The position numbers and the translations under genes are program-made. Source: a virus (lineage: Duplodnaviria; Caudoviricetes). Taken from it: a DNA stretch of 61,662 bases. Shown here piece after piece: positions 16,180 to 56,162 of this stretch (positions are counted from its first letter, which is position 1; the number at the start of each line of letters is the position of its first letter). The notes under the pieces are model-generated. The model saw nothing but the letters and a program-made list of their open reading frames with translations, had not been told where the DNA came from and did no database searches. The DNA is taken from the IMG/VR virus record IMGVR_UViG_3300016484_000327, positions 1-61,662 of that record; one strand, written 5' to 3'.

Positions 16180-19100
16180 TATCTGAATGACTTAGTAATT
16201 TTGTTATTAGACAAACGGAATAACATCTTATACTCTCCTGATACTAAACGCTTTAGAAGTACGCGTGTCATATAATGACGGAACTTCTTGCGCTGCAGCG
16301 GACTCTTAGCGTATGCTACATAATTAGGATTAATTTCCTTTACATATCCATTAGCTGCTGTGTCCCATATAGTTTGAAAGTTCGGATTGAACTCCCCGCG
16401 GTTACGCGTAATATCCCAGAACTGATTGAATCTATACTTATTCTCTTCCTTAGAGCACATGATCGTAATCTGATTCTGCTGCACAGCGGGATATTGCAGA
16501 TAGGACAAAGGATCATTCTTCTGCTTCTCTATCATCTTTAGTACACCCGATACCTGCTCTGTATTATAAACTACCGCTTGATCAAAGTTGAAATCTAATA
16601 CATGATTAGCATCACGACAATAATTATCATACTTATAGCACTCAAGCTGGTATTCAACATTCTTAAGAGTGGTTACTTCTTGACCAGTTGATGCAAGATA
16701 TTCAACCTCAAATGGATAGTCCTTTCCATAGAAGTTACAAAAAAGATCGCATCTTTCATTATGTTTCCATATCTCATCTTGGACTATTGTCATAAAATGA
16801 TTCCTAGAAGAAACCATTAGAGCAGGATGCCAATCGTGGAAACTAATCCAAGCTTGTGACTTTACATCATAACTAATTGTAAATGAAGCATCTTCAAAGT
16901 ATGTAGGATTACCAAGCTCAATTGATAATCTACCAATTCGAAAGATGTTACCCCTATCATACTTTAATGTATTCTTATAGTCGTCTTTAACACGATAGTC
17001 TTTCTTAGTAAGATATAGAATATCGTTTGTATTGTCGTATGCAAGCATGATACCAACACCGGACACTGGATTATCATAGAGTTGAAACTCAGGATAATCA
17101 GTCATAATATGTGAGGGTAAATACTTAGCAAACCACCATTTCATTCCGTCGCGGGATATTTCTTTCATACCCTGCATAAACTGAAATACCTTACCCTGGT
17201 TCTGACTAACCCAGAATAATCCAGCAGGAGTATTAATTACAGCACGTCTAGACTGACATGCTCCTTGCTCATACACTCCTTCCGCATTACTTAAGTTTTG
17301 TAGATTACCAGCAAATAATCCAGAGTCTCCAATTGTCACCTTTATACCATTCTGCGTCTGTAACTGATCTACACCAGGGAACATTACAGGACTACTAGCG
17401 TGCATTAATATCATTGCACCACTTTGGTTAACTCCTTTTATTGCAGTTATTCTAGAGTCAAAGTCTTGGTAATTATTAGCTAGATAGACTCTCCAGTTAT
17501 CTTTCTTAAGCTCATCTGTTTGGGGTAGAGAATATATAACGCGCTCAGGATAATATGAATAACATGTCTCAGCTACTTTAGGATCATAACTTGATGGTAA
17601 AACAGATGCCCATGAAAGATTATTAGTAATCAATCTTGAGTAGCTTAATGAGTAGTCATACTTATAGTAGTTACCAGACTTAATGATATCTGATCTAAAT
17701 AGACTGGCTAAGTCTGTATTTCTATACGGATCGTAGAACTGCTCTGATGCAAGTTCACCCCAATCGCGTTGTGCTAGGTTAATTTCACTCTCTACAAAGA
17801 AGTCACGCACACCATTTGCAAATAAGTAGAAATACGCATTGTCAATATTTAAGTCAAACTTATTTCCACACTTATATCTATCAAGATGTCTATAGTCATT
17901 TGGTAACACTCTATTCTGCCATGTATTAGCAGCTATAAGTGTTAGACTTGCTCCTCCTAATACACCACTTATAAGCTGATTTACAGTATCACTTGTGTTA
18001 ATTAGTTTAAGACGATTAAGCTCATTAAGTATTACATTACTTCCTAAATAAGTAGAAACCCCTGCTGTTAAAGGAGCCATCAAATTACTTAAGTTAATAT
18101 CACTAGTATCTGCCCAATAACGTGGGTAAGGAATATTTACATATTTCATGTAATCAAACCTAGCTCCATCTATATCATTAAACAACCAGTCGTTAAAGAA
18201 AAAGAATGAGTTCTTTTCTGTATAACGATTAATATAAATATCTCCTCCAAATAAGACTGGAGACGTATACTTCTGATCCTTAACAGCATCTGTATTAGCT
18301 ACACATGTAGATACTGGAATCTGAATAATACTAGGTAGCTGACCATACTGAGCTGGCTGACTAACCTTTAAAGACGCATAGTGCGCAGATGTTGTACGAG
18401 AAAAAGGAACTGTAGGTTTAGTCCATGCTCCCAATCCACCAATAGTTTCTCTACTATTATCTAGTACTTTTGGATCATCTAAAGTGCTATCAATCTTTAC
18501 AGCAATAAATCTACTTCTAAATAGATTATTAATTCTTGAGTCTAAACCAAAGTCTTGAATGTAAGGGTTAATATACTGAGCATTAGCTACATGTCTACGT
18601 CTATTATTAGCTATAGGACATAAATAGTTATCATAAGAACCATGTCCATTATACTGATAAGCATATTGTCTGTATGGAATCAAAGTGTTCATAATGCGAA
18701 CAATCTGTTCCATACCTTGTGTACCATAAAAACTCCAAAGTATTGGACCTGTTATAGGATTACCTAAAGCCGCAGCTGCTGCAACTGGACCAAGTTCTGC
18801 TAAAGGTGTAACCTCAGTAGTTCTACCAGTTAACTTTCCACCTTTAATAGCGTTTGCTAATGGGTTCAACGTACCAGTTATAGGTAGTATTACAGGATCG
18901 CCACCAGGAGTATTTGTAATTGTTCCTGCAGCTACACCAGCAATAGTTAAATTAGTTTGTATACCTTGAGGACCAGATTCAGCTGTTGTTACTGCGCTTT
19001 TACCTTTAATTAAAGCTATAGCTACACCTACCCCGATTACTGCAGCACCGTATAAAGCTAAGTCTCTAAGCATCTTATGTTCGGGATGCTTATATACAGG

Positions 19101-20984
19101 ACTAAATCGTCCATTAACCGCTCCATTAATTTCTCCATGCACCTTAAGTTCAAAAGGAGAAAGATATGGATCACGGAATTGAGTTTCAGGAGAATGAAAT
19201 GAGAAGATGTCCTTTCTGAATGTTCCCATAGGAGTGTACCCCTTACCTGTACAACCTCCCTTTACTTCTGTCTTACTAAGAAACGGATCTATACGAAGAT
19301 CATTAAAAGGATAGTTCTGGTATAATCCTTTGCGAGATGATACATCTTGATCTATATCATACTCACCCATATTATTCAATATTCCTTTAGCAATAATAGT
19401 TTTATTTCCTTCGCGAGACCCGCGTAGAATTTCATAACCTACAATAGATGTGATAGGATTACCATCGCTGTCTAAAGGATGAGATATATTATCAAACTTA
19501 ACTCCTAATAGGTTAATAAAATTACCCCCATTAGAATGTATGTGAGATGTGCAGTTATCTGGAAACTTATGATGACGAATCGGTTTACCACAAAGTTTGT
19601 CCCAAATGTCAGGACGATTATCAGGATACTTTTCTGTAGACTCCCAATATCCCATAGTACCTTCTGCTATTACAGTGGGTCCTTCTGGAAGATCATATTG
19701 TGTAGTGGAGGTAATGCTTGAAGTGTCATACACTTGCCAGTTTCTAGAAGGAGTATCTGTATATGTACTCTCTAATGCGTCTTGACCAGATGCTACAGCT
19801 AAATCATTAGTAGTTGAAGCTCTACCAGGAATATGATAGGAAGCAGTCTTTTCTCCTGTATTATAAATCCAGCGGATAAAGAATGAATACACCTCATCAC
19901 GCATATAGGATGTTAGATTACCACCCTTGTTATAATAGTTTGCTGGAACTTGAGCACTCACCCATTTAGACTGAATCTTATTTGCTTGTGGCTGATAGTT
20001 AATATCAAACTTGGTATATATACCAGTGCGCATTAAATAGTTGTTCACCTCAAATATTGCATCCGATTTCTCGTATGCTGGCGTAAGCATTGTAATATCT
20101 GATAGTGGAACAACTGGTAATGATTCAGGATACTTATCAATCATCACCTTCTTGGTTCTAGTAGAATAGAAACCAATAGATCTAGCATTAGTATTTTGAA
20201 ATACGGTGGCAATAAGTACCAGTTCAAACTCATCAAATGCATCTGCATCCATGAAGTCAATACTAAGTTCTAATCCACCACCAATACCTGCATGCTCAAA
20301 TAAAGACTGTACGTTTGATAAACCTACATAGTCTGTTACACGTATATTATTTACAGTGTATGCTACAGCTACCTGATAAGATCCATTAGCAAGATTACCA
20401 CCAGCATCTGCCTTCTCTAGAGATATACAAGGAGTTTTAAATAATGGAGCTAACCTAAGAGCTTCACAATCAAGCTTATCTGTATATTCAGGAACTTTAC
20501 AATCGGGACCACTTCTTTGCTTTTTCTCAATATAAGGTATCTTATCTAAGTTAAGTACGCGGTCTGGGTTAAGACCATCTGAAAAGTATACAGATTCTGT
20601 GCAATCAAAGTTTCCACGCACTACACCCGTTATCAGGTTTGTAGTTTTAAAGTTTAAACAGTTATCGTTTACCAGCTTCTCATATGAGCATTTGGTCTCA
20701 TCAAAGATTCCAATCTCTGAGTTTACGTCATTAGTACTAAAAATAACCCACTTACCTTCTGTCTTACTAATCGCTCCAATAATTGTATAGGAAATATCCA
20801 GACACTTAAAGTTAGCGGGTTCATTTCCAATAACTCCAATCTGTCCAAAGTTGGTATTATTAACAGCATTTCGTGCATGTGTCCAATTACCTTCTGGTGT
20901 ATATGCAGAGTCAAAGTCTTTTACCATTCCTTTATTAAAAGAGTTGGTAGTAGCTGACCCAGTATTTTGAAATTTCTCTGCCAT
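16179..20984 (-). CDS. Tail muzzle/stabilization protein (1601 aa)
   Basis: N-terminal SFNKGM.KD...W.HARN...GNEP, RDEVYSFFIRW, GGDIYINRYT, and FTISYD...WISFHDWHP motifs of crAss-like muzzle proteins; follows ring proteins. Confidence 0.8.
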   Translation of the reverse strand: MAEKFQNTGSATTNSFNKGMVKDFDSAYTPEGNWTHARNAVNNTNFGQIGVIGNEPANFKCLDISYTIIGAISKTEGKWVIFSTNDVNSEIGIFDETKCSYEKLVNDNCLNFKTTNLITGVVRGNFDCTESVYFSDGLNPDRVLNLDKIPYIEKKQRSGPDCKVPEYTDKLDCEALRLAPLFKTPCISLEKADAGGNLANGSYQVAVAYTVNNIRVTDYVGLSNVQSLFEHAGIGGGLELSIDFMDADAFDEFELVLIATVFQNTNARSIGFYSTRTKKVMIDKYPESLPVVPLSDITMLTPAYEKSDAIFEVNNYLMRTGIYTKFDINYQPQANKIQSKWVSAQVPANYYNKGGNLTSYMRDEVYSFFIRWIYNTGEKTASYHIPGRASTTNDLAVASGQDALESTYTDTPSRNWQVYDTSSITSTTQYDLPEGPTVIAEGTMGYWESTEKYPDNRPDIWDKLCGKPIRHHKFPDNCTSHIHSNGGNFINLLGVKFDNISHPLDSDGNPITSIVGYEILRGSREGNKTIIAKGILNNMGEYDIDQDVSSRKGLYQNYPFNDLRIDPFLSKTEVKGGCTGKGYTPMGTFRKDIFSFHSPETQFRDPYLSPFELKVHGEINGAVNGRFSPVYKHPEHKMLRDLALYGAAVIGVGVAIALIKGKSAVTTAESGPQGIQTNLTIAGVAAGTITNTPGGDPVILPITGTLNPLANAIKGGKLTGRTTEVTPLAELGPVAAAAALGNPITGPILWSFYGTQGMEQIVRIMNTLIPYRQYAYQYNGHGSYDNYLCPIANNRRRHVANAQYINPYIQDFGLDSRINNLFRSRFIAVKIDSTLDDPKVLDNSRETIGGLGAWTKPTVPFSRTTSAHYASLKVSQPAQYGQLPSIIQIPVSTCVANTDAVKDQKYTSPVLFGGDIYINRYTEKNSFFFFNDWLFNDIDGARFDYMKYVNIPYPRYWADTSDINLSNLMAPLTAGVSTYLGSNVILNELNRLKLINTSDTVNQLISGVLGGASLTLIAANTWQNRVLPNDYRHLDRYKCGNKFDLNIDNAYFYLFANGVRDFFVESEINLAQRDWGELASEQFYDPYRNTDLASLFRSDIIKSGNYYKYDYSLSYSRLITNNLSWASVLPSSYDPKVAETCYSYYPERVIYSLPQTDELKKDNWRVYLANNYQDFDSRITAIKGVNQSGAMILMHASSPVMFPGVDQLQTQNGIKVTIGDSGLFAGNLQNLSNAEGVYEQGACQSRRAVINTPAGLFWVSQNQGKVFQFMQGMKEISRDGMKWWFAKYLPSHIMTDYPEFQLYDNPVSGVGIMLAYDNTNDILYLTKKDYRVKDDYKNTLKYDRGNIFRIGRLSIELGNPTYFEDASFTISYDVKSQAWISFHDWHPALMVSSRNHFMTIVQDEIWKHNERCDLFCNFYGKDYPFEVEYLASTGQEVTTLKNVEYQLECYKYDNYCRDANHVLDFNFDQAVVYNTEQVSGVLKMIEKQKNDPLSYLQYPAVQQNQITIMCSKEENKYRFNQFWDITRNRGEFNPNFQTIWDTAANGYVKEINPNYVAYAKSPLQRKKFRHYMTRVLLKRLVSGEYKMLFRLSNNKITKSFR

Positions 20985-24039: not shown

Positions 24040-25353
24040 TTACACTGTGTATACAAACTCAGAAATCTTACCCTTTTCCTTATCGTGAAGTTCCATAACT
24101 GCTTGACGCTTAGCACCTGTGAACTTGTTATGGTAATGCCAGTAGTCACTCTTACAAAGACTAGGAAGATGCTTTATAGCAAATCCATGATGCTCATTCT
24201 CTGTAACATACTCTAGGGTTTTCTTACTATGGAAGTGACCAGTGTAACAAGTTCTATAAGTCGTTGATCCCCAAGCTTTTGCAAATTCTGTAGCGTAAAC
24301 CAGAGGTGTACTCTTCTTGGTAACATCTCCATGCTCAAATGCAAAGAAGTTCTCACCATATGTAACCACCTTTCTTTCAGCATACTCTACATCAAACTTA
24401 ACCCTATCATCTTTAATACATTTAGAAAGCGCATGTGCTAAATGAAATGAGCTAAGACGATCATGGTTACCTGGTAAATACACCACCTGTAAATCATGGG
24501 TAAACTCAGCTAGGTATAAAATAGACCAGTAGATCGCGTGGAATGCTTCCTCATATGCTTCCTGAGCACGGAGGTCATTATCTACGGGTGTACCCTTAGT
24601 GGTAGCTCCACTAAAACTATCCATATTTAGAATATCCCCTCCAATTACGTATATAATCTTATCTAGCATGTGGGAGTGATAACTCCTTAATACTAAGCTA
24701 CCTACAGCATCTTTAAAGTCTTTTGTAATACCATCATTATTCTCCTTACCAAAATGGAGGTCCTGTATAGACAGAATCCCCACAACCGGATTTACAAAGT
24801 TCTTATTAATTACCGGGGTGGGGATCTCAACTGTGCAGGGGTTAAACTTCTGTATCACCCTTTCTAGGAAGTCATCAGCTTCCGGTTTTAACTGCGTCAC
24901 CAGTGCTGAGACTAACCAGTAGTCCTTATGCTGTTTATTCCAATACTGACTAAGCTTCCACTTAGAAATGTCCACTTTAAGGATTCTTATGATCTCCTCG
25001 GGACTTTTAGGTTCTGCAAAGGCAATACCTTTAATTTCTGCAGTACCATCCTCTAGATCTTCTTTGAACTCAATTACACGCTCTTTTTGCTGTGTGATGC
25101 TTTCTACAATCTGATCTTCTAACTCACCAACATAGTTATTTAAAATTGCATCATCGTCAACAAGATCCATCATTTTCTTACTCACAGCATCCTTCATCAT
25201 TTCGTCCAAGTCATCTTGTACTAATGATTTTACATTGAGAATTTGTTGCTTAATAGCGCGGTATTTCTCCAGAGAAATCCCTATCTTTGCTGCGCAGAAT
25301 GCATCACTCTTCTTTAACTTGAGTGAGTCATACACTTCATTGATTAAGTTCAT
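24040..25353 (-). CDS. Calcineurin-like metallophosphoesterase with N-terminal HTH-like region
   Basis: Complete motif set DLHFG, GGD, GNHD, HGD, GHFH. Confidence 0.85.
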   Translation of the reverse strand: MNLINEVYDSLKLKKSDAFCAAKIGISLEKYRAIKQQILNVKSLVQDDLDEMMKDAVSKKMMDLVDDDAILNNYVGELEDQIVESITQQKERVIEFKEDLEDGTAEIKGIAFAEPKSPEEIIRILKVDISKWKLSQYWNKQHKDYWLVSALVTQLKPEADDFLERVIQKFNPCTVEIPTPVINKNFVNPVVGILSIQDLHFGKENNDGITKDFKDAVGSLVLRSYHSHMLDKIIYVIGGDILNMDSFSGATTKGTPVDNDLRAQEAYEEAFHAIYWSILYLAEFTHDLQVVYLPGNHDRLSSFHLAHALSKCIKDDRVKFDVEYAERKVVTYGENFFAFEHGDVTKKSTPLVYATEFAKAWGSTTYRTCYTGHFHSKKTLEYVTENEHHGFAIKHLPSLCKSDYWHYHNKFTGAKRQAVMELHDKEKGKISEFVYTV

Positions 25354-25478: not shown

Positions 25479-26318
25479 TTAGAATACTTTCTTGATCAAA
25501 TCTTCAGCACTCCCCCAATATGGATTAGATGGCGATGTAGTCTTACTATAAATACTAAAGTGGGAAGTAAAGTGCTTACCATGATTAACATGGATAGCTG
25601 GATTCTTACACATCCACTGCTTTCTACCTGGATCAGGTTCAACTAGCACCCCACCCTTTTCAATAGCTTCTTTAAGAAGCTCTTCAAAATGAGCAATAGC
25701 TTCATGAAATATCATAGTCATTTGATGAAGAGGTTCATGATTAGCTGTACGCATTTGAAATCCCTGCTCACATATTCCTATGTAATTCATATTAGTCATA
25801 ATCCCACTATCAAAATCTGGAAAGTCAAAATACCCATCTGGATACATCACATCATGCTCTAAGAAGCTGACATACTTATAGTTACCACTACTTCTAGCTA
25901 TATATAAAAGCTGCAAAATCTGTATTACAATATTCAAATGACTACTACTTTTAGTCATTGCTTGCACCTCATAAAAAGGATTACCTGGAATAGGTTTCCA
26001 AACACAGGTGAGTATATCAGCTATACCACTAAATCTTTGTAAGTTTAGAGCAGCAGCTTGCACTGTCTTATCTACATTGTTATTAGTATAGTAAATACCA
26101 AGCTTATTAGTTTTAGAGTGTGGAAGAGTTAGAAATGATCCTTCTGGAAGTTTTTTAGAACCTGCATTATAAACAACTTCTAAGTATTTATACATACCTG
26201 GTGCAGTATCACCAAATACATCATTAGAAGCTTTGATTCTAAGCTCTCCATTTTTAACATGCGATCTAACTATATCAGTTACATCCACACCTCCATAAGT
26301 TGCTTTAATTATTTCCAT
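25479..26318 (-). CDS. SUEL/DUF3395-like lectin domain fused to GT-A-like glycosyltransferase
   Basis: aa 1-66 IIKATYG..DVT...SNDVFGDTAPGMYKYLEVVY; C-terminal domain with YVSFLEHDVMY (DxD-equivalent) and a late H.NHG.HF motif. Confidence 0.6.
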   Translation of the reverse strand: MEIIKATYGGVDVTDIVRSHVKNGELRIKASNDVFGDTAPGMYKYLEVVYNAGSKKLPEGSFLTLPHSKTNKLGIYYTNNNVDKTVQAAALNLQRFSGIADILTCVWKPIPGNPFYEVQAMTKSSSHLNIVIQILQLLYIARSSGNYKYVSFLEHDVMYPDGYFDFPDFDSGIMTNMNYIGICEQGFQMRTANHEPLHQMTMIFHEAIAHFEELLKEAIEKGGVLVEPDPGRKQWMCKNPAIHVNHGKHFTSHFSIYSKTTSPSNPYWGSAEDLIKKVF

Positions 26319-26788
26319 GCGTGATACACTCCTATTCGGTCAGTATTTTCGTTAAATAATTGATACAGCTCTATATGCTTAAATCCCCATTTTTCAAGTT
26401 GGGATTCACAAATTCTTTTAGTCTCAGCATCGTGATATTCAACTGCAAATTGTCTAACACTTGAGGGTAAAGAATGAATATCTTCAAAGTACTTCTCAGC
26501 TCCTTCTATATCACACTTGATAATCTCAGGAGTGTGGTAGAGAAAATCTTCAAGATCTTTTTTGCTACTCACTGCTTTTGCATATGGTACAAATCTCTCA
26601 TCCTCAATAGGTTCTTTATTAATATCCACACCTATTACCTTTGCAGCACCTTCATCTAAAAACCATTGAGCTGTAGATATAGATGAGTAGAACTTACCAC
26701 ATCCAAGATCTAATACAATCTTACCCTTTGGGTTTAAGAATGACCAGTGCTTTTTGGGTTCTTCGCTGTTAATTACTAAAGTAGACAT
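26309..26788 (-). CDS. SAM-dependent methyltransferase, FkbM-like
   Basis: VLDLGCG (motif I), VIGVD, IIKCDIEGAE, VEYH. Confidence 0.8.
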   Translation of the reverse strand: MSTLVINSEEPKKHWSFLNPKGKIVLDLGCGKFYSSISTAQWFLDEGAAKVIGVDINKEPIEDERFVPYAKAVSSKKDLEDFLYHTPEIIKCDIEGAEKYFEDIHSLPSSVRQFAVEYHDAETKRICESQLEKWGFKHIELYQLFNENTDRIGVYHAWK

Positions 26789-27708
26789 GTTACCTCCTTG
26801 GTTTTAAGTATTTCCTGAACATAGTTTATAGAACAAAACTTATCACTATAAGTCTTATTAACTACATCATTATATGGTAATGAGTGTATATAAGCTCCTT
26901 TAAAGAATATTTCATGCGCACGATCATGCGTTACACCAGCATTGTGAAAGATTGGATGCTTATCCCATTCCTGAATACCTGATGTAGCCCAAGAAAATGA
27001 TAAGTCACTAGTCACTTTAACTTGCTTACCACGTTTCCATAGTCCCCAAAGCAAACACCACATGTCTGCACACCAGATCTGTATCTCATGATGATTCGGA
27101 TCTGCTGCTTTGTCTTCACGTATTATCTCATTAACTCTACTATACATCTCTTCCACCTGATGATACATCTCTTCCCAAAATGAAGCATCAATATCTTTTA
27201 TAATATACTGAGCTCCCCCACTATCTTTCTCATTATCTATAACTACTTGAGGATCAATACCTACAATATTAGCCATAGTATTAAGATAACGCTCACCCTT
27301 GCTACGAATATAATTAGCTCCAATGTAACTAACTGTATCTGCAGCATAGCACGTATCACCTTCTGCAAGGTGTTGGAACCCAAACGGTTTACTTAAAATA
27401 ATATCTGAATCGTGGTAAAATACCACTTCCTTAGCTAACTCAGGACGAGCTATCCAATGTTTCTGTAAAATATAAGGACGAATGCTAGGAATATACCCCT
27501 TTTTAGGACGGTCATCTTTATAAAAGAAAAAACATACATAGGGATATGTGTCAGCGAGTTTACTCCATATTTCTGGAATATTCCCGTAATGACCACATAC
27601 TATATGTATGTCATTAGCATTTACACCATTTCGAATAAAATTGAGGATCATCACCTCAACTTGCCAAGCATAGTAGTCTATCGCTGGTTGTGCACAGACA
27701 AATTTCAT
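26776..27708 (-). CDS. GT-A glycosyltransferase resembling GT96/GT95 protein O-glycosyltransferases
   Basis: YYAWQ (12-16), YIPSIRP (72-78), VFYHDSDII (DxD 100-102), GGAQY, WCADMW, IFHNAG. Confidence 0.7.
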   Translation of the reverse strand: MKFVCAQPAIDYYAWQVEVMILNFIRNGVNANDIHIVCGHYGNIPEIWSKLADTYPYVCFFFYKDDRPKKGYIPSIRPYILQKHWIARPELAKEVVFYHDSDIILSKPFGFQHLAEGDTCYAADTVSYIGANYIRSKGERYLNTMANIVGIDPQVVIDNEKDSGGAQYIIKDIDASFWEEMYHQVEEMYSRVNEIIREDKAADPNHHEIQIWCADMWCLLWGLWKRGKQVKVTSDLSFSWATSGIQEWDKHPIFHNAGVTHDRAHEIFFKGAYIHSLPYNDVVNKTYSDKFCSINYVQEILKTKEVTCLL

Positions 27709-27746: not shown

Positions 27747-28874
27747 TTATCCTCCAAGAGTAGTAGTTGTAGTGGTAAATCCACATGGGATTTGATATAG
27801 TATAGTAGCTTCATTTAAAACAACAGATCCTACAATAACGCAAGGCGTAAGAATAGTTTCTCCAGGACCCACTCCTGTAATTGATTCTAATCCACTTCCA
27901 CAAAGAGTAGCTTTAGCAAATCCACCAGTTATACTAGTTATTGCATACTGAGCGCATGCTTGTGTTGTAGTGGTTGTTGTTGGAGCTAATGTAGTAGTAC
28001 TTGTCGTACTTGTAGTGCTAGTACTTGTAGTAGTCGGAGGAGGGCAAGGAAATATTTCCTTTACTGTTGCATTAGTTAAAACTAACGTATTTGACCATAT
28101 ACATCCTGTATATATAGAAGCACCACTAGTGCTTATTGTTCCTCCTACAGGAACATTATAACAGGTTTGAGCTGCCCATGTAGCACCAGCAATAGTTGCT
28201 TGAACTCTATATTGTTGGCAAACGGGAGCAGCTGTAGTTGTAGTGGTTGTACTAGAAGTACTTGTAGTTGAAGTGGTAGATGTTGATGTAGTTGTAGAAG
28301 TGTTACATCCTGATCCTAAACCAAGCGCTAATATAAAATTATTATTATATGTAAGATCTTCATCACATACACAAATAAGAACAGTTGCACCAGCAGCTAA
28401 TGAAACATTATTGAATCTTACACGAGAACAGTTAGTATAACTATATGTTTGAGTAACATTAGAAACATTCTTAAGACTATACGTTTCACAATCACAAGGT
28501 GCAAGTGTTGTAGTCGTCGTTGTAGATGTAGATGTGCTGGTAGTTGTAGTTGGACAAATACATGTAGTTGTAGTTGTCGTAGGTATAATCGTTGTAGTAA
28601 TTATAACCGGAGCTTTTGTAGTCGTAGTTGTAGTAGTACAATTACGAGGTACGGGAAGCATACTTATAAAATGCAAAAGAATATCCTGAAGATTTTTACC
28701 TTCAGGAATAGCATAGCAACTATCTCCAGGATGTACAACACATATGTCTTTAGTTAAATCTGTACATACGTTCGCATCCTTACACGTTGTCGTCGTTGTA
28801 GTCGAAGACGTGGTAGTTGTCCCTGAACATATTGGACATGGTGGATCGCATGGTGTATAGCAATTACAAGACAT
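27747..28874 (-). CDS. Mucin-like Cys/Thr-rich putative virion fibre protein (375 aa)
   Basis: Multiple poly-Thr/Ser tracts alternating with three ~50-aa Cys modules; N-terminal anchor-like motif. Confidence 0.75.
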   Translation of the reverse strand: MSCNCYTPCDPPCPICSGTTTTSSTTTTTTCKDANVCTDLTKDICVVHPGDSCYAIPEGKNLQDILLHFISMLPVPRNCTTTTTTTKAPVIITTTIIPTTTTTTCICPTTTTSTSTSTTTTTTLAPCDCETYSLKNVSNVTQTYSYTNCSRVRFNNVSLAAGATVLICVCDEDLTYNNNFILALGLGSGCNTSTTTSTSTTSTTSTSSTTTTTTAAPVCQQYRVQATIAGATWAAQTCYNVPVGGTISTSGASIYTGCIWSNTLVLTNATVKEIFPCPPPTTTSTSTTSTTSTTTLAPTTTTTTQACAQYAITSITGGFAKATLCGSGLESITGVGPGETILTPCVIVGSVVLNEATILYQIPCGFTTTTTTLGG

Positions 28875-28890
28875 AGTACTAGTTCAGATA

Positions 28891-29118
28891 TTAGTCGTTA
28901 CAACCACAAATTTCTTCTTTACCTGAAGGAAAAGCAAATATAGCTCCTCCTAGAAACTTCACTCCTTGCCCATTATGACAAAAAGAATAAGTTCCAGTTT
29001 CAATATATAATTGAGTGGGTTCAGAACCCTGACACGGGGTCCATTCAGCAACACCTACACCATTCACCAAATATTCGGTGTTATAACAAGGGGAAACACA
29101 AGGTATATTATTACTCAT
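28891..29118 (-). CDS. Small Cys-rich protein (single Cys module, 75 aa)
   Basis: C...Y...W.PC...FC pattern shared with neighbours; fills the gap between genes. Confidence 0.65.
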   Translation of the reverse strand: MSNNIPCVSPCYNTEYLVNGVGVAEWTPCQGSEPTQLYIETGTYSFCHNGQGVKFLGGAIFAFPSGKEEICGCND

Positions 29119-29136
29119 AATTTATAGTCTTATATA

Positions 29137-30072
29137 TTAACAAGGACCTGATGAAACTACTGTTACACCGCCTGCAGTAACATTATATCCACTACCATCA
29201 GTACAAATTGTAAATTGTCCGTTAAAGGTTTGTGTTAACGGAGTACCTCCACAATCAAACCATTCAATAGATGCAGGACTACCGCCTGAGTCAAGAGTAT
29301 ATCCAAAACATAAACTTTCTACGGTAGTCGTAGTTGTAGTTATAGGTTCAATTGTTGTAGTAGATGTAGTTGTTGTAGGTTCTACCGTTGTACTGGTAGT
29401 TGTCGTAGTAGGTTCCGCAGTAGTAGTAGTAGTTGTTGTCGGTTCTAATGTTGTAGTTGAAGTAGATGTAGAAGTTGTAGTCGGAGGAGGTTCTGCGGTT
29501 GTAGTTGTTGTACTACTACTTGTTGTACTAGTTGTAGAAGATGTAGTTGTAGTAGTTGGAGCTATAGTTGTAGTTGTAGTAGTACTAGTAGATGTTGTGG
29601 TTGTTGGAGGAATCGTAGTTGTGGTTGTTGTAGATGAAGTAGTCGTAGAAGTTGATGTTGTTGTACTAGAAGTAGTAGTAGGTGTAGGACCTAGGTTAGT
29701 TGTAGTCGTAGTAGTAGGAACTATAGTGGTAGTAGTCGTTGTACCAGAAATAGTTGTTGTCGTAGTAGTTGCTGGAGCAATTGTTGTACTACTTGTTGTA
29801 GATGTAGTGGGTAAACTAGTTGTACTAGTAGTTGTAGTTGGTCCTCCAATTATAAACAGATCAATAGATGTAGTACATGTACCAGTAGATTGCACACGGA
29901 TAATAGTAGTATTATCTGGAACTGTAACCGTATAAACTGCGGGTGCTTGTATTAAAGACTTTGGAATACCTGATGCAAACACAATAAAATTACCTGTTGC
30001 GTTTGATAGTAATCGAAAAGGACCTGTATTAGACCCTAATCCTGATAATGATATTGATACAGCAAATGGCAT
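29137..30072 (-). CDS. Mucin-like protein with ~175-aa PTS domain (311 aa)
   Basis: aa ~78-252 mostly Thr with Ser/Pro/Glu, between an N-terminal beta domain and a C-terminal Cys module. Confidence 0.8.
   Translation of the reverse strand: MPFAVSISLSGLGSNTGPFRLLSNATGNFIVFASGIPKSLIQAPAVYTVTVPDNTTIIRVQSTGTCTTSIDLFIIGGPTTTTSTTSLPTTSTTSSTTIAPATTTTTTISGTTTTTTIVPTTTTTTNLGPTPTTTSSTTTSTSTTTSSTTTTTTIPPTTTTSTSTTTTTTIAPTTTTTSSTTSTTSSSTTTTTAEPPPTTTSTSTSTTTLEPTTTTTTTAEPTTTTTSTTVEPTTTTSTTTIEPITTTTTTVESLCFGYTLDSGGSPASIEWFDCGGTPLTQTFNGQFTICTDGSGYNVTAGGVTVVSSGPC
29317..29841 (-). repeat. Low-complexity poly-Thr coding repeat
   Basis: Mixed ACT/ACA/ACG/ACC codon runs with recurring (E)PTTTTTT units. Confidence 0.85.
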
Positions 30073-30084
30073 TTCACTATTATT

Positions 30085-31179
30085 TTATATGGTAGTTGTT
30101 GTAGTTGTCGGTACACATGCTGCTACATTAACAACTGTAATAGAAGATCCAGATGGGAATGCAACAGATCCTGTACAAGCACATACCGCTACTGTTTGTC
30201 CCGCTGGTACAGAAACAAATGCAGACTGAGCAGTTCCACAAGTATTATAAGTCACATACGCAGCTGTTGCACCTGTGTTAGTAAGATTATAAGTTCTACA
30301 AGTGGAACAATTAAGTGTAGTGGTTGTAGTTACAGGAATTGTAGTAGTTGTAGTCACATAAGGAGTGTTGGAACATACATTAACTGTAAACGCTCCGCCC
30401 ACCTCACAATCGTTATATATTACTGTACCATTAGGTTTAGTAATTCTCACCCATATTTCGTGCTGGTGAGATACTGGAGTGTTATCACAAACAGCACTAT
30501 ATTTTGTTACAGCATGGTCTAGATTAAATGTAATATTTGAACTTCCACCATTTGCAGCAGCTATCTGAATAGCTTCTTCCATAGTAAGTGTAATAGAACT
30601 ATACCTACTATGCTCAGAACCTTTCCATATACCTCCAGTTAACGGAGAAGGTGTATTTTTATAATCTTTACATATAACTGTACCGTATTCTGAAAGAGCC
30701 CCACAATCAGAATCATCATTATTCATACGAGCATCTCCAACATATTCACCAGCTAAATAAACTTCATGCAATGCACGATTACAGTTATGTGTAGCTATAG
30801 AAGATTCACAAGGATGTACATAACCAGAAGGTAAAAGTGAATAATCTTGATTAGTAGCTATATAAAGAAACTCAAGTTTTAATCCAAGTAGACATGCAAT
30901 AGTTGGTGTAGCAGCAAATCCAGAACAGATTTCACAAGGATTATATGTAGTAGTGGTCGTATTACAGTTGGGATAAATATAATTATAAAGAATAGCAATC
31001 ACCTGTGTAATTGTCATTCCGTTTGTGATACCAAAGCAAGGAAGGTTAGGTCCTGTGTAAAGCACACAATCCGTGGATGTTTCTTCATCACACTTAGGTC
31101 CTGCTGGACATGCTTCCGCAGGTTGTAAAAATTCTGGACACCATTTATCGTGCCATGGATTACCGCAGTTACAAGACAT
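30085..31179 (-). CDS. Cys/Thr-rich putative virion fibre protein (364 aa)
   Basis: CVLYTGPNLPC.GI..G anchor-like motif, four poly-Thr runs, C-terminal Cys module. Confidence 0.7.
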   Translation of the reverse strand: MSCNCGNPWHDKWCPEFLQPAEACPAGPKCDEETSTDCVLYTGPNLPCFGITNGMTITQVIAILYNYIYPNCNTTTTTYNPCEICSGFAATPTIACLLGLKLEFLYIATNQDYSLLPSGYVHPCESSIATHNCNRALHEVYLAGEYVGDARMNNDDSDCGALSEYGTVICKDYKNTPSPLTGGIWKGSEHSRYSSITLTMEEAIQIAAANGGSSNITFNLDHAVTKYSAVCDNTPVSHQHEIWVRITKPNGTVIYNDCEVGGAFTVNVCSNTPYVTTTTTIPVTTTTTLNCSTCRTYNLTNTGATAAYVTYNTCGTAQSAFVSVPAGQTVAVCACTGSVAFPSGSSITVVNVAACVPTTTTTTI

Positions 31180-31734: not shown

Positions 31735-33078
31735 TTAAGGACTAATAATAGTAGTGGTGGTAGTAACAGGAACTGTTGTAGATGTAGTTGTTGGAACAGG
31801 AACTGTAATAACGCTAGCACCGCTTGTATCATAAATAAGTACAGCTGAAGAACCAGATGAACCGGTAGCTGTAATTTGACAATAATCACACCCGCTTGGA
31901 TTTACCTGTACTGTTACACACTTAACGCATGTTGAAGATCCATCAGTAAGACATACATCTGATGTAATAGTCATACCCTGTGTAGGATCAATTGCTCCTG
32001 GGATTGACAATAGATAACCATTTTGAAGAACAGTGTTATCATCAAATACATCCTCTCTAAGCTTGATGTAGAAGTAGGACTGATGACCTGCACCATCTGT
32101 AATGTTAAACTTAGTACCATTAACAGTGTTACAATCCGCCCATCCAGTCGGAACATTACTCTTCGGTAAGAAGAATAGTGTCATTTCATCATCTGCAAGA
32201 TTCAACTGAACATCAAAGTCAACTATGATATCATCACAAGTAACCTTGCAGCAGTTATCTTGAATAAGTTTAACCGCACTTCTAAGATCATTAATAGCCA
32301 ACCACATCTTTTCCATAGACTGAGCAGCATTCGTAGAAGCTGTAGCCCATAAAATACTAGATGGATTAACTAAAGAATATTGAGGAAGAGTGGTGGGTTC
32401 TGCAGCAACAATGTCTGCAATATCAGGGTTAGGACCTATAAGTCCTTTAAATGCACAATAATTAGCTTCAATAGCTTCTATCGCCTCATCCATATCCTGA
32501 AGTCCAGGATTAATACAAGTGAGGGTAACTTGAGGAAGCGTCTCGTTCTCAAGAACAGTAACACGGGTATCTAGATTATCAATCTGATTTTGAAGATTAA
32601 CATCCTCCTGCTGTAAAGCTGTAATCTGAGTTGCAAGATTACAAACTTCAATACCTATCTTCTTAACGTATTCTTGTAAGGGTAAGTCCTTAATTAAATC
32701 CCCGCTACTATCTGTGTACTGAAAGCATACCGCCATCCTAGTGATCATCTGATTAGTATCATCAGAAGGATTGAGATTATCAATAATCTCCTCTAGTGTA
32801 CACACCTTATCAATCAGAAGTTGTAGAACAATGGAAAGCTTTTTATCGGGTTCTGGACAAGCAAGACACTGATCAATAAGACATTTTAGGTCAAGATCGC
32901 TCAAGTTTAGTAGATTCTGCAGCTCGCACACTTTCTTTGCAAGCTCGTACATAGACTCTGAAAGCGTTTGACCAGTGCACACATTGATGCAAATCAGGTC
33001 GGGACCGTTCCATATAATACAGTTAGATGATATTGGTGAACAGGTCTCCTTGTTTATATTAGATTTAATAGGAGGCAT
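31735..33078 (-). CDS. Coiled-coil, Cys-rich fibre protein with C-terminal Thr tail (447 aa)
   Basis: CSPISSNCIIWNGPDL.C anchor-like motif, heptad segment LQNQIDNLDTRVTVLE, tail PTTTSTTVPVTTTTT. Confidence 0.7.
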   Translation of the reverse strand: MPPIKSNINKETCSPISSNCIIWNGPDLICINVCTGQTLSESMYELAKKVCELQNLLNLSDLDLKCLIDQCLACPEPDKKLSIVLQLLIDKVCTLEEIIDNLNPSDDTNQMITRMAVCFQYTDSSGDLIKDLPLQEYVKKIGIEVCNLATQITALQQEDVNLQNQIDNLDTRVTVLENETLPQVTLTCINPGLQDMDEAIEAIEANYCAFKGLIGPNPDIADIVAAEPTTLPQYSLVNPSSILWATASTNAAQSMEKMWLAINDLRSAVKLIQDNCCKVTCDDIIVDFDVQLNLADDEMTLFFLPKSNVPTGWADCNTVNGTKFNITDGAGHQSYFYIKLREDVFDDNTVLQNGYLLSIPGAIDPTQGMTITSDVCLTDGSSTCVKCVTVQVNPSGCDYCQITATGSSGSSAVLIYDTSGASVITVPVPTTTSTTVPVTTTTTIISP

Positions 33079-34432: not shown

Positions 34433-35077
34433 TTAACAATAACAACAAGAAATTCCTAAATCTACGTAAAATCCAGACACTGTACCAACTTGAGCACAGA
34501 ATATGTCTCCCACCAAAAGAATTCCGGACTGTGGAACGTTACAGCAGTCTGTCCATGTCATAAATGAAGTAGCAGTTGCTTGATGTTCAGTACAAACGTA
34601 CGCACATGCACCAGTAGTTGTAGTGGTTGTAGGACCGCAAGTTACAACAGAATCTAACTGATTTCCATTTACAGTGTAACAAACACTACCATTAGATAGA
34701 TATCCTGATATGGGAGGACTATACCCAGAGCAATTTGATTGCGAGTTTATAGAACAAAATGTACTAATTGTAGAACAACAGCTATAAAATGTAAATGTAA
34801 AAGGTCCTGCGCATGCTGTTGTACAATCTCCAGCAAACGCCCACCCTGTATGAAAATAACAAGGATTGCCTCCGCAACAGTTTATAGTGTGGTTATATCC
34901 ATACCACTCACTTATAGATGCTGGGTTACCAGCACTCGGTCTAAGCGGACTACATTGATTAATAGCTACATATCCACCATTTTCAGCAGTGTCTAATGAA
35001 AGAGGAGCTTGAGAAGGTATTCCTAACTCAGTTCTTATTTGATTCATACTCAACGATCCAGATGTAGGAAGTGCCAT
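34433..35077 (-). CDS. Putative tail-fibre tip/adhesin protein, Cys-rich with a Thr tract
   Basis: MALP.SG.LS...I..ELG...SISEWYGY N-terminus typical of proteins following chaperone-bearing fibres; starts 1 nt after the fibre stop. Confidence 0.6.
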   Translation of the reverse strand: MALPTSGSLSMNQIRTELGIPSQAPLSLDTAENGGYVAINQCSPLRPSAGNPASISEWYGYNHTINCCGGNPCYFHTGWAFAGDCTTACAGPFTFTFYSCCSTISTFCSINSQSNCSGYSPPISGYLSNGSVCYTVNGNQLDSVVTCGPTTTTTTGACAYVCTEHQATATSFMTWTDCCNVPQSGILLVGDIFCAQVGTVSGFYVDLGISCCYC

Positions 35078-35078
35078 A

Positions 35079-38000
35079 TTAGTCTAGTCTAGCTTTTAGT
35101 TCATCAATCTGCTTCTGCTGCTCTTTAATAGCTTCAATTAGCACACCGACAATATTTCCGTAGGATACGTTATACATACCTGAATTATCTTGAGCTACCA
35201 CTTCTGGAATCACCTCAAGTATCTCTTGTGCTATCACTCCCACCTTTCTACGTTTATCATCTGAGTCGGTGCGGTTATAGTATACACCTCTGAGGTTCAG
35301 CACTTTATCTAGAGCATCTTCTACTGTCTCAACATTTTCTTTAACACGAGCATCAGAGTATGCTGTTACGTCTCCCGCAACTGTCATATTACCTGACATA
35401 TCAAGTTGCCATCTATTTGCTGCAGCACTCCATCCTCCAATTCTAAGAACACTGTCTGCATCAAGTCCCATATTTACAGCATACTGACCACCTTTATGGA
35501 ATGAGAAAAACGCTGAGTTATTACTGTCAGAATATGCTTGAAGTGGAGGATTAGATAAACTACCACAATATCCTCCTAAATTACTTCGAAAATAATTAAT
35601 ACCAGTCCATGTATAAGTTCCTCCTGTAGCATTACTTACACTGTTTGTATTACCAGAGTTTGAAGCAAAACTTGCTGTACCTGCTGTTGTTGCATAGTTA
35701 ACGTTCTGGGAACCAATATTACCAGAGGTGATCATCTCTACCCATCCTGATGTAGTGCTACCCCATTTACCTCTTAACCAATATCTATTTGCAGTGGCAT
35801 CAGCAGCACCAACCATCATCCATCCATAAGCCGCACTACCATCTGAGTTAGCATAGTGTTGTCCAGATACAATACCTTGAGCGTGAATGTATCCACTACC
35901 TTGAGGGTGAGCTGTTCCTGTTCCCCATATATCCCATCCACTAAATCCTCCTCTCCAAGCATTATCCCAGTTTCCATAACTAGTCCCCCAACCATTTGTA
36001 CCTGTCCAATAATTCTGATCACTAGTTTCAGCCTGTCTATTATGCCACCAACGAGGTTCGCCCCAACGTGCTCTCGTACCAGTTGTTATACTATTAAGTT
36101 CAGAAGTACCATTAGGATCTAAAAAGTAAGAACTATCGTTAGAGTCAGAAAATCTTACACCGTATATATAACCATCAGAACCAAAATACTTACTACTTAT
36201 CCATGTATCTTCTTGTAAAACTCTACTATGATTTCCACCATAAGTATTTCTTCCTGAATATAAAGCTCCCCCAGACCAAAATATTTGCCAACCATATGAA
36301 TTATTATGAAAACCTGACTCATTTGAGGCATTAGAAAGCATCACTACTACAGAACCATTACTTCCATTACCGAACTCTATTCCTCCCCATCCATTACGTG
36401 AACCAGTTATAATCCATGATCCATAAGTTCCGTTATTAGGATAAAAGTGAGCACTATTTTGAGCAGAATAAAGACCATGGAATCCAGGTAAATGAACCCA
36501 AGTATTAAATTGACCGTAGTTGCTACCACCTTGTTGAAGTTCAAAACCGTTTGCTAAACGTAATGTTGTAAATACAGATGTAGGAGAGTTAGCTGTAAAG
36601 TTTAAATAGGACCCATCCCAATACATTCCCCTTCTACCATTCCAATCATTGTTTGACGGTAATGACCAAAATCCATTATTTTCACCAGCAACATAAGCAC
36701 CATCTATCAACATACCCATCTGACCAGCGTTTGGTAAGCCATTACCAAATACTATCTCACCACCACTAACAGCATATCCACCCCATCTTGAACCAGGCAT
36801 ATTTACGCCATACCAACCACCACCAATAGGAAGAGTGTAATTCGTGTAGTTAGCTGCTGTTAATACTAAATTACCATTAGCATATAAATCATTAACATTA
36901 AAATAAAAACTACCTCTATCGGTATATATATGAGCATAAGATCCATTTGCAGGACCTAGTTGAATATATCCTGTACTATTACTAAATCTTACCCCCCAAT
37001 CACTATTACCAGACAATGTAGCTCCAGTAGTAGATGTACCAAATGTTATGGAGTTCATTACGGAAGTACTAGCAAAGTTTCCGTAGTATGCTGTATTGTC
37101 AGAGTCGTAGAATATAGGAGCACGCATATCTGTATTAGAGTAGATAGTTCCTCTAACATCAAGTGTATAAGCAGGGTTACCAGCTCCCCAGTTACCCCAA
37201 TCACCTCCAATACCAACAGCATTATCAATAATACGCATGATGGTATTTCCATTGTATCCTGATATACCATTATGTGGGTTAAAGTCTGTGTTTCCATATC
37301 CAGAACTAGAAAAACCAAAGTCCATGAATGTACCTTGTCCATTACAACCAATAACCCACTGACGATTACTTAGACCATTAAATGCAAATTGAATTGTTGG
37401 ACCATGTTGAGTATTGCTTGTTTCAGTATGATTTAAAGTTAAAACAGGATAAGCACCTGTCATGTATATTGTAGGACGAATATTGGTGTCTTGTAAAGTG
37501 TAAGGAGTAGATGATCCACCTACAATTAATCTATTACCAAAATTACCTCCTGTTCCACCTTGCACATATATATCTCTAGCAAATGAAGCGGCATAGTTAG
37601 ATCCATTATAACCAATCCAACTAAAGACGTTATTACCAGTAGTATCGTTATGAAATCTTACATAAGAATCACCATTATTACCATTACTGTCAAGTCTAAG
37701 ATTTATGTCATTAAATGAGTTAATAGACATACTATCAGAAAAACTCCCATTAACATCAGTAGAAGATATGCCATGATTAGAATATGTATTATAACTTCCA
37801 TCCCAATCAAAAGACATGTAAGCAATCCTGTGTAAAGAACTTGACCATGTACCATATCTCTGCCAATAGCTATATCCATTTTCCAATTGAAACTGCCCAC
37901 CAGTTCTTACATCGGCAGACATATAAACGTTTTTCCCATTGTATGACCTTATCCAGGTACTATCGTTCATGTGCCATCCACCACCATAAGTTTCAAAATA

Positions 38001-46750: not shown

Positions 46751-46763
46751 GACGAATATTTTA

Positions 46764-48739: not shown

Positions 48740-50113
48740 TTAACCAGCAGTAGTAGTAGTGCTAGTAGTTGGAGCAGCGGTAGTAGTAGTTGTTGTAGCA
48801 GCTACACAATTGTTCTTGAAAGCAACACCAGGAGCTAAATTAGCACACTGAACAGCGTTTGTACCTTCAATCTCAACACCATTTCCAGCGCAGTTCAGAA
48901 TATCTTGAAGACGATTCAAGAACAGAATTGCGTTAGTTCCTTTAGGAACATAGAAAGTCAACAGATACTGATCGTTGTCGAAAGTACCAGTTGGGTTGTT
49001 AAAACGGGGTACGCTGTGAAGAATGTTGATAGAATCCCACAAAGTGTTACGATCGAAATTCTTGATCGCAGGATCAGTTTCGATCTCACGCATACGCAGA
49101 CTATCTACGTATTTGTTATCAGGGAAAGAATTCTGGAGATAACGAGTGAACATGATCAAATCACGAACCACAGTTTCACCAGTACCCTGAGCTTGTAGAC
49201 CTTCTACCAATTCAGTTGCGCTAAATCCTTTCCAAGTCCAGTTTGTATCACCATTAGGACCAGTACGTTCAACGCAAGCTTCTCCGCTCATATCTACCAA
49301 AGAGGTAAGAATACGAAGAGGTTGCAGTTCGTAATGATCAGTAGGAGTGAAAGTACAGTTACCGAACTTAGTGTCCACATAAGCAACAATCAGTTGCAAA
49401 TCAGAGCTAGAAGCAGCATCAGCTACAGGATCAAATGCAGCATGCACAGGACCAGCAAGATAAGCATCCAAAGCAGCAATAAATGCAACGATGTCAGCTT
49501 GAGTAGTACCAGCTTGTGTAGCAATAGTTGTTCCTTCGTAGTCTTTTACCACTAACTTAACGAAGTCAGGAAGAATAGGACGCTCCAGAATTTGCTTAGC
49601 CCAGTTGATTGTTACAACTGTAGGGTCAACAAGAGTTCCAGTGCAACCTGCAGAGCAATCATCATTGCAACATCCTGTAAACGCATCAACTGTGCGATAG
49701 ATGTTGTGAGACAAAAGACGTAATGCAGGAGATCCTTTCAGATCCAGACGGAGATAATAAGTCTGTCCACACTCAGCACCAGAAGCAGTAATTTCCATTA
49801 CTTGATTCTGAGCGTTTTCACCACAAGCAGTCCACACTTTAGTGATGTACTTGGGGTTAATAACTTTAGATTTTACAGACTCTTTGTATCCACCATGAAA
49901 CGGTCCAATCTTGTCAGAGGTAAAATAGCTACCCTGAGCAATGATGAAAGGTTTAGAGGATACAGATGTGATAGCTTGGAAAGTCTTCGCGTCGAAAAGA
50001 CCCAGCTGACCTGCTGTGAGATCAGCTGTGCTACCAGAACTAGCAAGAGGAAGTGCTCCACCTGTTACTGCAGGAAGAAACGCTTTCTTAAACGCATGAT
50101 TAAAATACGCCAT
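48740..50113 (-). CDS. Putative auxiliary capsid protein (crAssphage gene 74-like) with poly-Thr C-terminal tail
   Basis: MAYFNHAF...KSKVINPKYI...Y.LRLD.KG motifs; synteny; high-expression codon bias like the MCP; ends AATTTTTTAAPTTSTTTTAG. Confidence 0.65.
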   Translation of the reverse strand: MAYFNHAFKKAFLPAVTGGALPLASSGSTADLTAGQLGLFDAKTFQAITSVSSKPFIIAQGSYFTSDKIGPFHGGYKESVKSKVINPKYITKVWTACGENAQNQVMEITASGAECGQTYYLRLDLKGSPALRLLSHNIYRTVDAFTGCCNDDCSAGCTGTLVDPTVVTINWAKQILERPILPDFVKLVVKDYEGTTIATQAGTTQADIVAFIAALDAYLAGPVHAAFDPVADAASSSDLQLIVAYVDTKFGNCTFTPTDHYELQPLRILTSLVDMSGEACVERTGPNGDTNWTWKGFSATELVEGLQAQGTGETVVRDLIMFTRYLQNSFPDNKYVDSLRMREIETDPAIKNFDRNTLWDSINILHSVPRFNNPTGTFDNDQYLLTFYVPKGTNAILFLNRLQDILNCAGNGVEIEGTNAVQCANLAPGVAFKNNCVAATTTTTTAAPTTSTTTTAG

Positions 50114-55811: not shown

Positions 55812-56162
55812 TTAAGCAAGAGTCAGGTTCAACTTACCAGCTGCCCATACAAAAGCTGCTTCGTTGATAGTTCCAGCTTCACTCTCATCCCAATTAATAT
55901 AGTCTTGACCAGTCATAACTATATTACCCTGTGCCACTTGCTGAATAATTGTTGAAGGACCAGGAGGAATAGGACCTGGAGGAACAGGACCAGGATTTTC
56001 ACTAGTTGTGGTAGTGGTTGTAGGAACAGGAGTTTCTACTACCAAAGCGTAGAAGAAAGTCGCACTATCCTTTAAATTGTCATTAATAACGTACAAGTTA
56101 AGACGGTTTGCTTCCATTTCTACACCGTTAAACCACACTTGTACAGGTTGAATAGCTCTCAT
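55812..56162 (-). CDS. Small structural protein with internal Thr/Pro insert (116 aa)
   Basis: PVPTTTTTTSENPGPVPPGPIPPGP between beta-strand segments. Confidence 0.6.
   Translation of the reverse strand: MRAIQPVQVWFNGVEMEANRLNLYVINDNLKDSATFFYALVVETPVPTTTTTTSENPGPVPPGPIPPGPSTIIQQVAQGNIVMTGQDYINWDESEAGTINEAAFVWAAGKLNLTLA

Follow-up and report, generated by a model that had tools for sequence, protein, structure and literature searches.

The virus record IMGVR_UViG_3300016484_000327, analysed here over its whole length of 61,662 bases and called the window in what follows, carries a gene for a 310-residue glycosyltransferase (GT) next to genes for proteins with runs of threonine (Thr), and it is the relation between this enzyme and the poly-Thr runs that is considered in the present study. 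The completeness of the record is estimated at about one half, and nearly all of its genes lie on the minus strand. Since its portal protein is 23–34% identical to the portals of crAss-like, Cellulophaga and Flavobacterium phages, the host is probably a member of Bacteroidota. Directly upstream of the GT gene, three Thr-rich proteins (375, 311 and 364 residues) are encoded, in which small domains containing cysteine (Cys) are joined by runs of 4–7 Thr. The part of the locus concerned reads as follows (ORF, open reading frame):

26776..27708, minus strand: glycosyltransferase, 310 residues, ATG-to-stop ORF; soluble GT-A enzyme of the family phrog_4417 with DxD residues D100/D102 and invariant Q167, H255 and K270; proposed initiating poly-Thr O-glycosyltransferase
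27747..28874, minus strand: Thr/Cys protein, 375 residues, 27% Thr, 26 Cys, with Cys domains and poly-Thr linkers, ending ...FTTTTTTLGG; proposed acceptor
28891..29118, minus strand: small Cys-rich protein, 75 residues, between two poly-Thr genes and without Thr runs; membership in the system uncertain
29137..30072, minus strand: mucin-like protein, 311 residues, 40% Thr, 53% serine (Ser) plus Thr, 13 runs of at least four Thr; proposed acceptor
30085..31179, minus strand: Cys-rich protein, 364 residues, 15% Thr, starting with MSCNC like the 375-residue protein and ending ...VPTTTTTTI; proposed acceptor

Concerning the enzyme itself, an earlier note, made from the letters of the window alone, had pointed to five motifs in a fixed order, and all of them were recovered in the 310-residue ORF, namely YYAWQ (residues 12–16), YIPSIRP (72–78), VFYHDSDII (96–104, with D100 and D102), WCADMW (212–217) and IFH (253–255). 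In an alignment of 57 sequences sharing 33–82% identity with the 310-residue query (hereafter A1), the residues W15, Y72, D102, G165, Q167, M216, H255 and K270 are invariant, and Q16, D100, W212 and W217 are conserved in at least 90% of the members. The core residues of the motifs, including those of catalytic type, are therefore either invariant or conserved at that level, and given this conservation the five motifs are judged to be more than a chance occurrence. The search of Pfam with the 310-residue protein returned zero matches at E up to 1, whereas in PHROGs the family phrog_4417 (function unknown) was matched over the full length—residues 1–304 against profile positions 1–292 of 293—with an E-value of 1.1e-67. 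Among the sequences of the PDB, phmmer gave one match for the 310-residue protein, at E 0.84, which was judged to be noise, and the A1 profile gave only TAL-effector repeats, summed at about 3 bits per repeat, which were rejected as spurious. The maximum Kyte-Doolittle mean over 19 residues is 0.85 and there is no hydrophobic or membrane segment, so that the GT is soluble and presumably active in the host cytoplasm.

As far as the Thr-rich proteins of the window are concerned, the Thr codons of the 311-residue mucin-like protein are mixed (ACT 33, ACA 25, ACG 6, ACC 6), and the runs are therefore under selection at the protein level rather than being DNA microsatellites. The 375-residue protein gave zero matches in both the Pfam and the PHROG searches. 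C-terminal poly-Thr tags are present on four proteins of the window, i.e. those of 375, 364, 447 and 457 residues, the latter two being encoded further away from the GT gene, together with two more proteins that contain an internal run:

31735..33078, minus strand: 447 residues, with a C-terminal poly-Thr tag, ending ...VPVPTTTSTTVPVTTTTTIISP; possible acceptor
34433..35077, minus strand: 214 residues, Cys-rich, with an internal run of six Thr (T6); possible acceptor
48740..50113, minus strand: 457 residues, in the head/tail gene block, with a C-terminal poly-Thr tag, ending ...AATTTTTTAAPTTSTTTTAG; possible acceptor
55812..56162, minus strand: 116 residues, gene flanked by those for portal and capsid, an internal T6 preceding a Pro-rich stretch; possible acceptor

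The 375- and 364-residue proteins resemble each other in that both start with MSCNC and a Cys-rich stretch, have Cys modules of about 60–90 residues between the Thr linkers and contain 24–26 Cys each; these modules found no match in Pfam or PHROGs. It should also be mentioned that the guanine–cytosine (GC) skew, mostly negative elsewhere and about −0.15 in the preceding bins, rises to +0.195 in the 2-kilobase (kb) bin 28001–30000. Because the ACN codons of Thr on the minus strand appear as NGT in the plus-strand sequence, this flip is an artefact of composition caused by the Thr runs and not a replication signal.

The best evidence for the function lies in the gene context. For the related loci, the best 80 of at least 595 relatives in IMG/VR were taken. 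A locus was counted if an ORF with a Thr run ended within 2.5 kb upstream of the GT gene on the same strand, and only the loci with enough flanking DNA were assessed. Such an ORF was found upstream of the GT gene in 46 of the 67 loci, as compared with 4 of 70 downstream and 14 of 395 background ORFs; counted by clusters of the GT (single-linkage, 70% identity), the upstream coupling holds for 23 of 36. Homologues of the Thr-rich proteins of the window themselves occur in only 1–3 of the 80 loci. What is conserved upstream is a composition, not a gene.

The same coupling is seen in isolated phages. In all eight of those examined, poly-Thr tracts occur in the products of genes beside the GT gene, in most of them as C-terminal tags on the major tail or capsid proteins or on small Thr-rich proteins:

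phiFL1A: major tail protein ending in a 21-residue Thr/Ser run, with the GT gene directly after it
phiCTP1: poly-Thr on the tail-tube protein
iLp84 (Lactobacillus): poly-Thr on capsid and tail proteins and on a 125-residue protein with 34% Thr
VPE25 and bIL285: poly-Thr on the major tail proteins
vB-SscS-F1 and Iacchus: poly-Thr on small Thr-rich proteins
Chryseobacterium phage MA9V-3: 428-residue upstream protein with an internal Thr run, not a C-terminal tag

In the small temperate phages, the GT gene lies within the late structural operons, flanked on one side by the tail-tube or capsid genes and on the other by the tail chaperones. Two details of these records may be added. In the Enterococcus phage VPE25, a 392-residue protein (1382–2560 of the locus) with an internal T6 is encoded two genes upstream of the GT, and the major tail protein, which ends in ten Thr (T10), is encoded 1.8 kb downstream of it, so that the tagged genes are not adjacent to the GT gene. 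In the record of iLp84, the profile match to the GT gene (6885–7772) contains one TGA; because the annotated coding sequence ends at 7763, the match probably merely overruns the stop codon.

The question was also asked in the reverse direction by scanning IMG/VR for ten consecutive Thr codons, which gave 117 new loci, 81 of them with an in-frame run of at least ten Thr. The phrog_4417 enzyme was present in seven of these 81, always as the next gene downstream, and in none of the 36 loci without such an ORF. Where the gene following the poly-Thr ORF could be assessed (35 cases), phrog_4417 was the commonest one (6), followed by VanY (3), GT2 (1) and radical SAM (1), one ORF of 2358 residues (L203) having been left out of the 29 next ORFs outside the family.

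A comparison within one protein family is offered by the major tail protein of the Lactococcus prophage bIL285, homologues of which were found in 203 phage records. This tail-tube protein ends in nine Thr (T9), added after the conserved motif W(F/Y)xxV(Y/H), whereas six homologous tail-tube proteins—from phages of Streptococcus (3), Ruminococcus, Exiguobacterium and Geobacillus—end at that motif, their longest Thr run being at most two. The family profile matched none of the six comparison genomes, while all four positive controls were matched. Among homologous tail-tube proteins the poly-Thr tag thus tracks the enzyme, being present with it and absent without it, and the coupling is phylogenetic as well as statistical.

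The AlphaFold2 model of the 310-residue protein (pLDDT 97.9, pTM 0.93) has the GT-A glycosyltransferase fold, strand 1 beginning at residue 2, and the residues DSD (100–102) follow immediately after the strand 95–99, i.e. at the usual DxD site of the GT-A enzymes. The best solved matches found by VIA-align were the following, the values being given in the order of the output:

Glycogenin 1zcu: 15.3, 3.3, 220
LgtC 1g9r: 14.9, 3.5, 233
UGGT catalytic domain 6fsn: 14.3
Skp1 alpha-galactosyltransferase 6mw8: 14.3
WbbM, residues 282–569: 14.1
GlyE 5gvv: 13.6
GT6 enzyme 4cj8 (Bogt6a): 12.7, 4.1, 220

Foldseek agrees with VIA-align, with TM-scores to solved structures of only 0.39–0.51, and in a viral structure library two members of the family were found at TM 0.94 and 0.75, the next match, a GT8 protein, reaching 0.48. 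According to the earlier note, best matches to GT8 or GT2 enzymes would speak against the plant kinship that it had proposed. The nearest solved folds belong to GT8/GT24 enzymes, which goes in part against that proposal. The Pfam profile Glyco_transf_8 (PF01501) matched none of the 57 members of A1 at E up to 10, nor the window GT. The latter differs from the retaining GT-A enzymes of the GT8 type (glycogenin, LgtC, GlyE) and from the GT24 domain of UGGT in the absence of this match, in a sequence identity of only 8–16% and in the low TM-scores. Its own mechanism may be a retaining one.

The family is large. The relatives of phrog_4417 form 1296 clusters at 90% identity and 851 clusters at 50% identity (E up to 0.001), and they include 77 records of isolated phages—those of Lactobacillus, Enterococcus, Staphylococcus, Lactococcus and Clostridium, and one Chryseobacterium phage—all below 60% identity and none with a functional annotation. 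Among the 150 best family representatives, 89 have a length of at least 380 residues; all of these but P0242, which was scanned separately, entered the scan for fused domains. Many of the resulting 88 fused relatives have a second sugar-handling domain, which was GT7C in 11, GT2 in 8, GT6 in 3, GT25 in 2 and GT29 (sialyltransferase) in 1, with a radical SAM/SPASM pair and a methyltransferase found once each. Such fusions to other sugar-handling domains fit an enzyme that would act as one step in the building of a glycan. The radical SAM and SPASM domains belong to the representative P0145 (658 residues), and in one IMG/VR locus the poly-Thr ORF is directly followed by a gene for a radical SAM/SPASM protein; the fusion and the neighbour together hint at a further modification of the same poly-Thr tracts.

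Downstream of the GT gene in the window, two overlapping genes follow:

26309..26788, minus strand: S-adenosylmethionine (SAM)-dependent methyltransferase, 159 residues; Pfam Methyltransf_31 at E 2.6e-6 and 27.6 bits against a cut-off of 27
25479..26318, minus strand: GT2-like protein, 279 residues, with an N-terminal beta domain of about 65 residues, a GT2-like GT-A domain (67–279) and invariant E154-H155-D156

The start of the methyltransferase gene overlaps the stop of the GT gene by 13 nucleotides, and the start of the 279-residue protein overlaps the stop of the methyltransferase gene by 10. The GT2-like protein, which resembles the teichoic-acid enzymes TarP and TarS, is proposed to be a second, elongating glycosyltransferase, and the methyltransferase would serve in the methylation of the glycan. 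In the 80 best related loci, a homologue of the former follows the GT in 35 and a homologue of the latter in 12. Directly after this cassette lies a gene (24040–25353) for a 437-residue protein matching phrog_704, a DNA repair exonuclease, at E 4.4e-44; 8 of the 80 loci have a homologue of it at a distance of 1.4–4.1 kb on the downstream side of the GT.

Taken together, it is fairly probable that the enzyme glycosylates the poly-Thr runs of the phage's own virion proteins and that the cassette modifies or extends the glycan, giving a mucin-like coat. The 310-residue GT would be synthesised in the cytoplasm of the host during the late phase of infection. With a nucleotide sugar bound at its DxD-metal site, it would attach a first sugar to the hydroxyl groups of adjoining Thr residues in the tags and linkers of virion proteins. 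The glycan would then be lengthened by the 279-residue enzyme and capped or modified by the 159-residue methyltransferase, and the resulting mucin-like coat on the particle may serve in shielding, stability or adhesion. What is established is the fold, the conserved residues of catalytic type, the cassette and the coupling to poly-Thr, while the nature and stereochemistry of the sugar and the sequence in which the enzymes act belong to the proposal. The viral peptide-Thr O-glycosyltransferase suggested in the earlier note is in this way borne out as to the GT-A fold with its DxD and the coupling to poly-Thr, the basis being the fold and comparative genomics, while Thr as the acceptor keeps the rank of a proposal.

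Virion O-glycosylation in mycobacteriophages is reportedly the subject of a study by Freeman et al. 2023 in Cell Host Microbe, and to our knowledge it is only in mycobacteriophages that glycosylation of phage virions has been established experimentally. This is the closest known system in kind. In the cited passages of PMC12619734, the capsid and tail-tube subunits of Mycobacterium phages are reported to carry glycans at their C-termini, and a methyltransferase is said, in part of PMC12894461, to take part in the process. The likeness consists in phage glycosyltransferases thought to decorate the C-termini of the phage's own capsid and tail-tube proteins, to which the C-terminal poly-Thr tags would correspond, as well as in the methyltransferase of the window cassette; a phage GT gene together with Ser/Thr-rich tracts on virion proteins, as in systems of the mycobacteriophage type, is present. 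The differences concern the enzyme family (phrog_4417, which has no Pfam model), the proposed acceptor, which is a pure poly-Thr run, and the hosts, which are Bacteroidota and Bacillota and not Actinobacteria. Word searches of the literature, supplementary tables not covered, returned no description of the phrog_4417 family or of phage poly-Thr tags. Glycosylation of phage virions is of a known kind, and what would be new here is the uncharacterised enzyme family acting on a poly-Thr tag.

Several observations weigh against glycosylation of the virion poly-Thr. By the criterion used, no ORF with a Thr run is present upstream in 21 of the 67 related loci, and the 80 loci, being the closest relatives of the query, share common ancestry and are not independent. 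In the reverse scan, the enzyme was absent from the available DNA of 74 of the 81 poly-Thr loci, many of these loci being short and giant-virus contigs being included. The six comparison phages lacking the enzyme have hosts of genera different from that of bIL285. Among the nearest solved folds are enzymes acting on lipo-oligosaccharide (LgtC) or glycans, the fold alone being silent on a protein acceptor, and no glycan measurement on any of these phages was found in the literature searched.

It is rather improbable that the GT glycosylates phage DNA, i.e. hydroxymethylated bases, as a protection against restriction, with the nearness of poly-Thr being an inherited gene order. Phage glycosyltransferases commonly modify DNA, as stated in the cited part of PMC12619734, fusions to further GT domains would also suit DNA hypermodification, and VPE25, which carries a homologue of the GT, has DNA reported to be glycosylated (PMC4999554, in part), so that in this phage a role in DNA modification is conceivable. 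The passages of the same source, however, attribute the glucosylation in VPE25 to a homologue of the T4 beta-glucosyltransferase; a WbbI-like protein is named there as well, and the present GT is not one of the two (PMC4999554). Further against a DNA substrate speak the place of the gene inside late structural operons, the upstream partners that are alike in composition and not homologous, and the tag that follows the enzyme among homologous tail-tube proteins. Still a little less probable is the modification of a host envelope glycan (O-antigen, teichoic acid or capsule), by which superinfection would be excluded or the re-adsorption of progeny to lysed cells prevented. The closest solved folds do include LgtC and the GT8 domain of WbbM, builders of lipo-oligosaccharide and O-antigen, and the adjoining GT2-like protein has the likeness to TarP and TarS, but the GT lacks a membrane segment, its gene lies in late virion operons and not in lysogeny modules, and the coupling to poly-Thr across phages of Bacteroidota and Bacillota would be left unexplained.

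An explanation closer to the preferred one, though unlikely too, is that the enzyme is a protein glycosyltransferase for which poly-Thr is a flexible linker, a recruiting tag or has some other purpose, the acceptor being another residue or protein. The data do not identify the modified residue, and the family members without a nearby Thr-run ORF would suit this view; against it, poly-Thr is the sole feature common to otherwise unrelated neighbour proteins and is often a short tag at the very C-terminus, where the glycans of the Mycobacterium phage capsid and tail-tube subunits are also placed (PMC12619734, in the passages cited).

With regard to the relationship of the enzyme to the plant hydroxyproline O-arabinosyltransferases (HPAT, family GT95) and the peptidyl-serine alpha-galactosyltransferases (SGT1/SERGT1, GT96), of which the earlier note, likening its motifs to those of SERGT1 and HPAT, had taken it to be a possible relative, three relatives match the HPAT profile below the cut-off, whereas the window GT and the other relatives do not. 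The HPATs transfer L-arabinofuranose from UDP-Araf to peptidyl hydroxyproline. HPAT (PF23452) was the only Pfam family with more than one match in A1, i.e. 3 of 57, every other family being matched once. In the best match, that of P0247, residues 9–242 align colinearly with positions 9–230 of the 307 of the profile (E 1.3e-4, 21.9 bits against a cut-off of 23.9). The profile PF23452 gave zero matches with the window GT at E up to 10, with the 88 fused relatives at E up to 0.01 and with ten further relatives, close kin of P0247 included, at E up to 1, and there was no precomputed PF23452 entry among 85 relatives of P0247. A first look with the HPAT profile at the window and five GT-carrying phage records, returning no candidates, gave no match either, which is weak negative evidence. 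When a protein language model was used for the search, the 30 nearest named clusters included 19 of the PF23452-labelled set and six with DUF7164; in the one cluster of that set which was shown, 10% of the members carry PF23452.

The GT95 enzymes are predicted to be GT-A-like in the cited part of PMC8476585, and this fold, present in the GT model, is common to many GT families and hence non-discriminating; no structure named GT95 or GT96 was among the fold matches listed. According to passages of PMC8012813, a relationship exists between GT95 and GT96, the HPATs reside in the Golgi as type II membrane proteins, and in structural proteins with contiguous, repetitive tracts it is enzymes of the HPAT/SGT1 type that attach the first sugar directly to the hydroxyl side chains. 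The proposed acceptor, hydroxyl side chains in contiguous tracts, would resemble that of the plant and algal HPAT1-3 (GT95) and SGT1 (GT96), but the window GT lacks the Golgi type II anchor of the plant HPATs, and its acceptor would be Thr instead of hydroxyproline or Ser. A specific kinship of the phrog_4417 enzyme to GT95/GT96 has about an even chance of being right, and that to HPAT (GT95) may be regarded as a weak lead. The broader proposal—that phrog_4417 and the portable poly-Thr tag constitute a widespread modular system by which phages of Bacteroidota and Bacillota would furnish any capsid, tail-tube or fibre protein with a mucin-like coat, and that the family is at the same time a viral or prokaryotic sister of the plant and algal GT95/GT96 enzymes initiating extensin glycosylation, with a common origin of the glycosylation of contiguous hydroxy-amino-acid tracts—is doubtful and is put forward tentatively.

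Elsewhere in the window there are five very large ORFs of 1077–1872 residues (2–5371, 5374–8607, 16179–20984, 35079–39905 and 39909–45527), one of which runs off the window end; the 1872-residue protein contains 17% Thr and 12 short Thr runs. At 45530–47872, three consecutive proteins of 406, 177 and 191 residues have a common C-terminal module (phrog_30556, phrog_34633 and phrog_21918), the 406-residue one also matching tail-fibre families, and they look like a tail-fibre set with a common C-terminal domain.

If the glycosylation of virion poly-Thr holds true, hundreds of phage lineages would sugar-coat their particles by means of a simple appended tag, including phages of Enterococcus, Lactococcus, Lactobacillus and Staphylococcus as well as crAss-like phages of Bacteroidota. 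The glycosylation of mycobacteriophages is described, in passages of the papers citing that work, as a shield against antibody recognition. The prediction made here is directly testable in tractable isolated phages, and it would bear on phage stability and mucus adhesion, on the clearance of therapeutic phages by the immune system and on the way in which cryo-EM maps and proteomics are interpreted, while the tag and the enzyme would make a portable pair for glycoengineering. Should the link to GT95/GT96 be confirmed, the origin of the extensin-type glycosylation would lie outside the eukaryotes.

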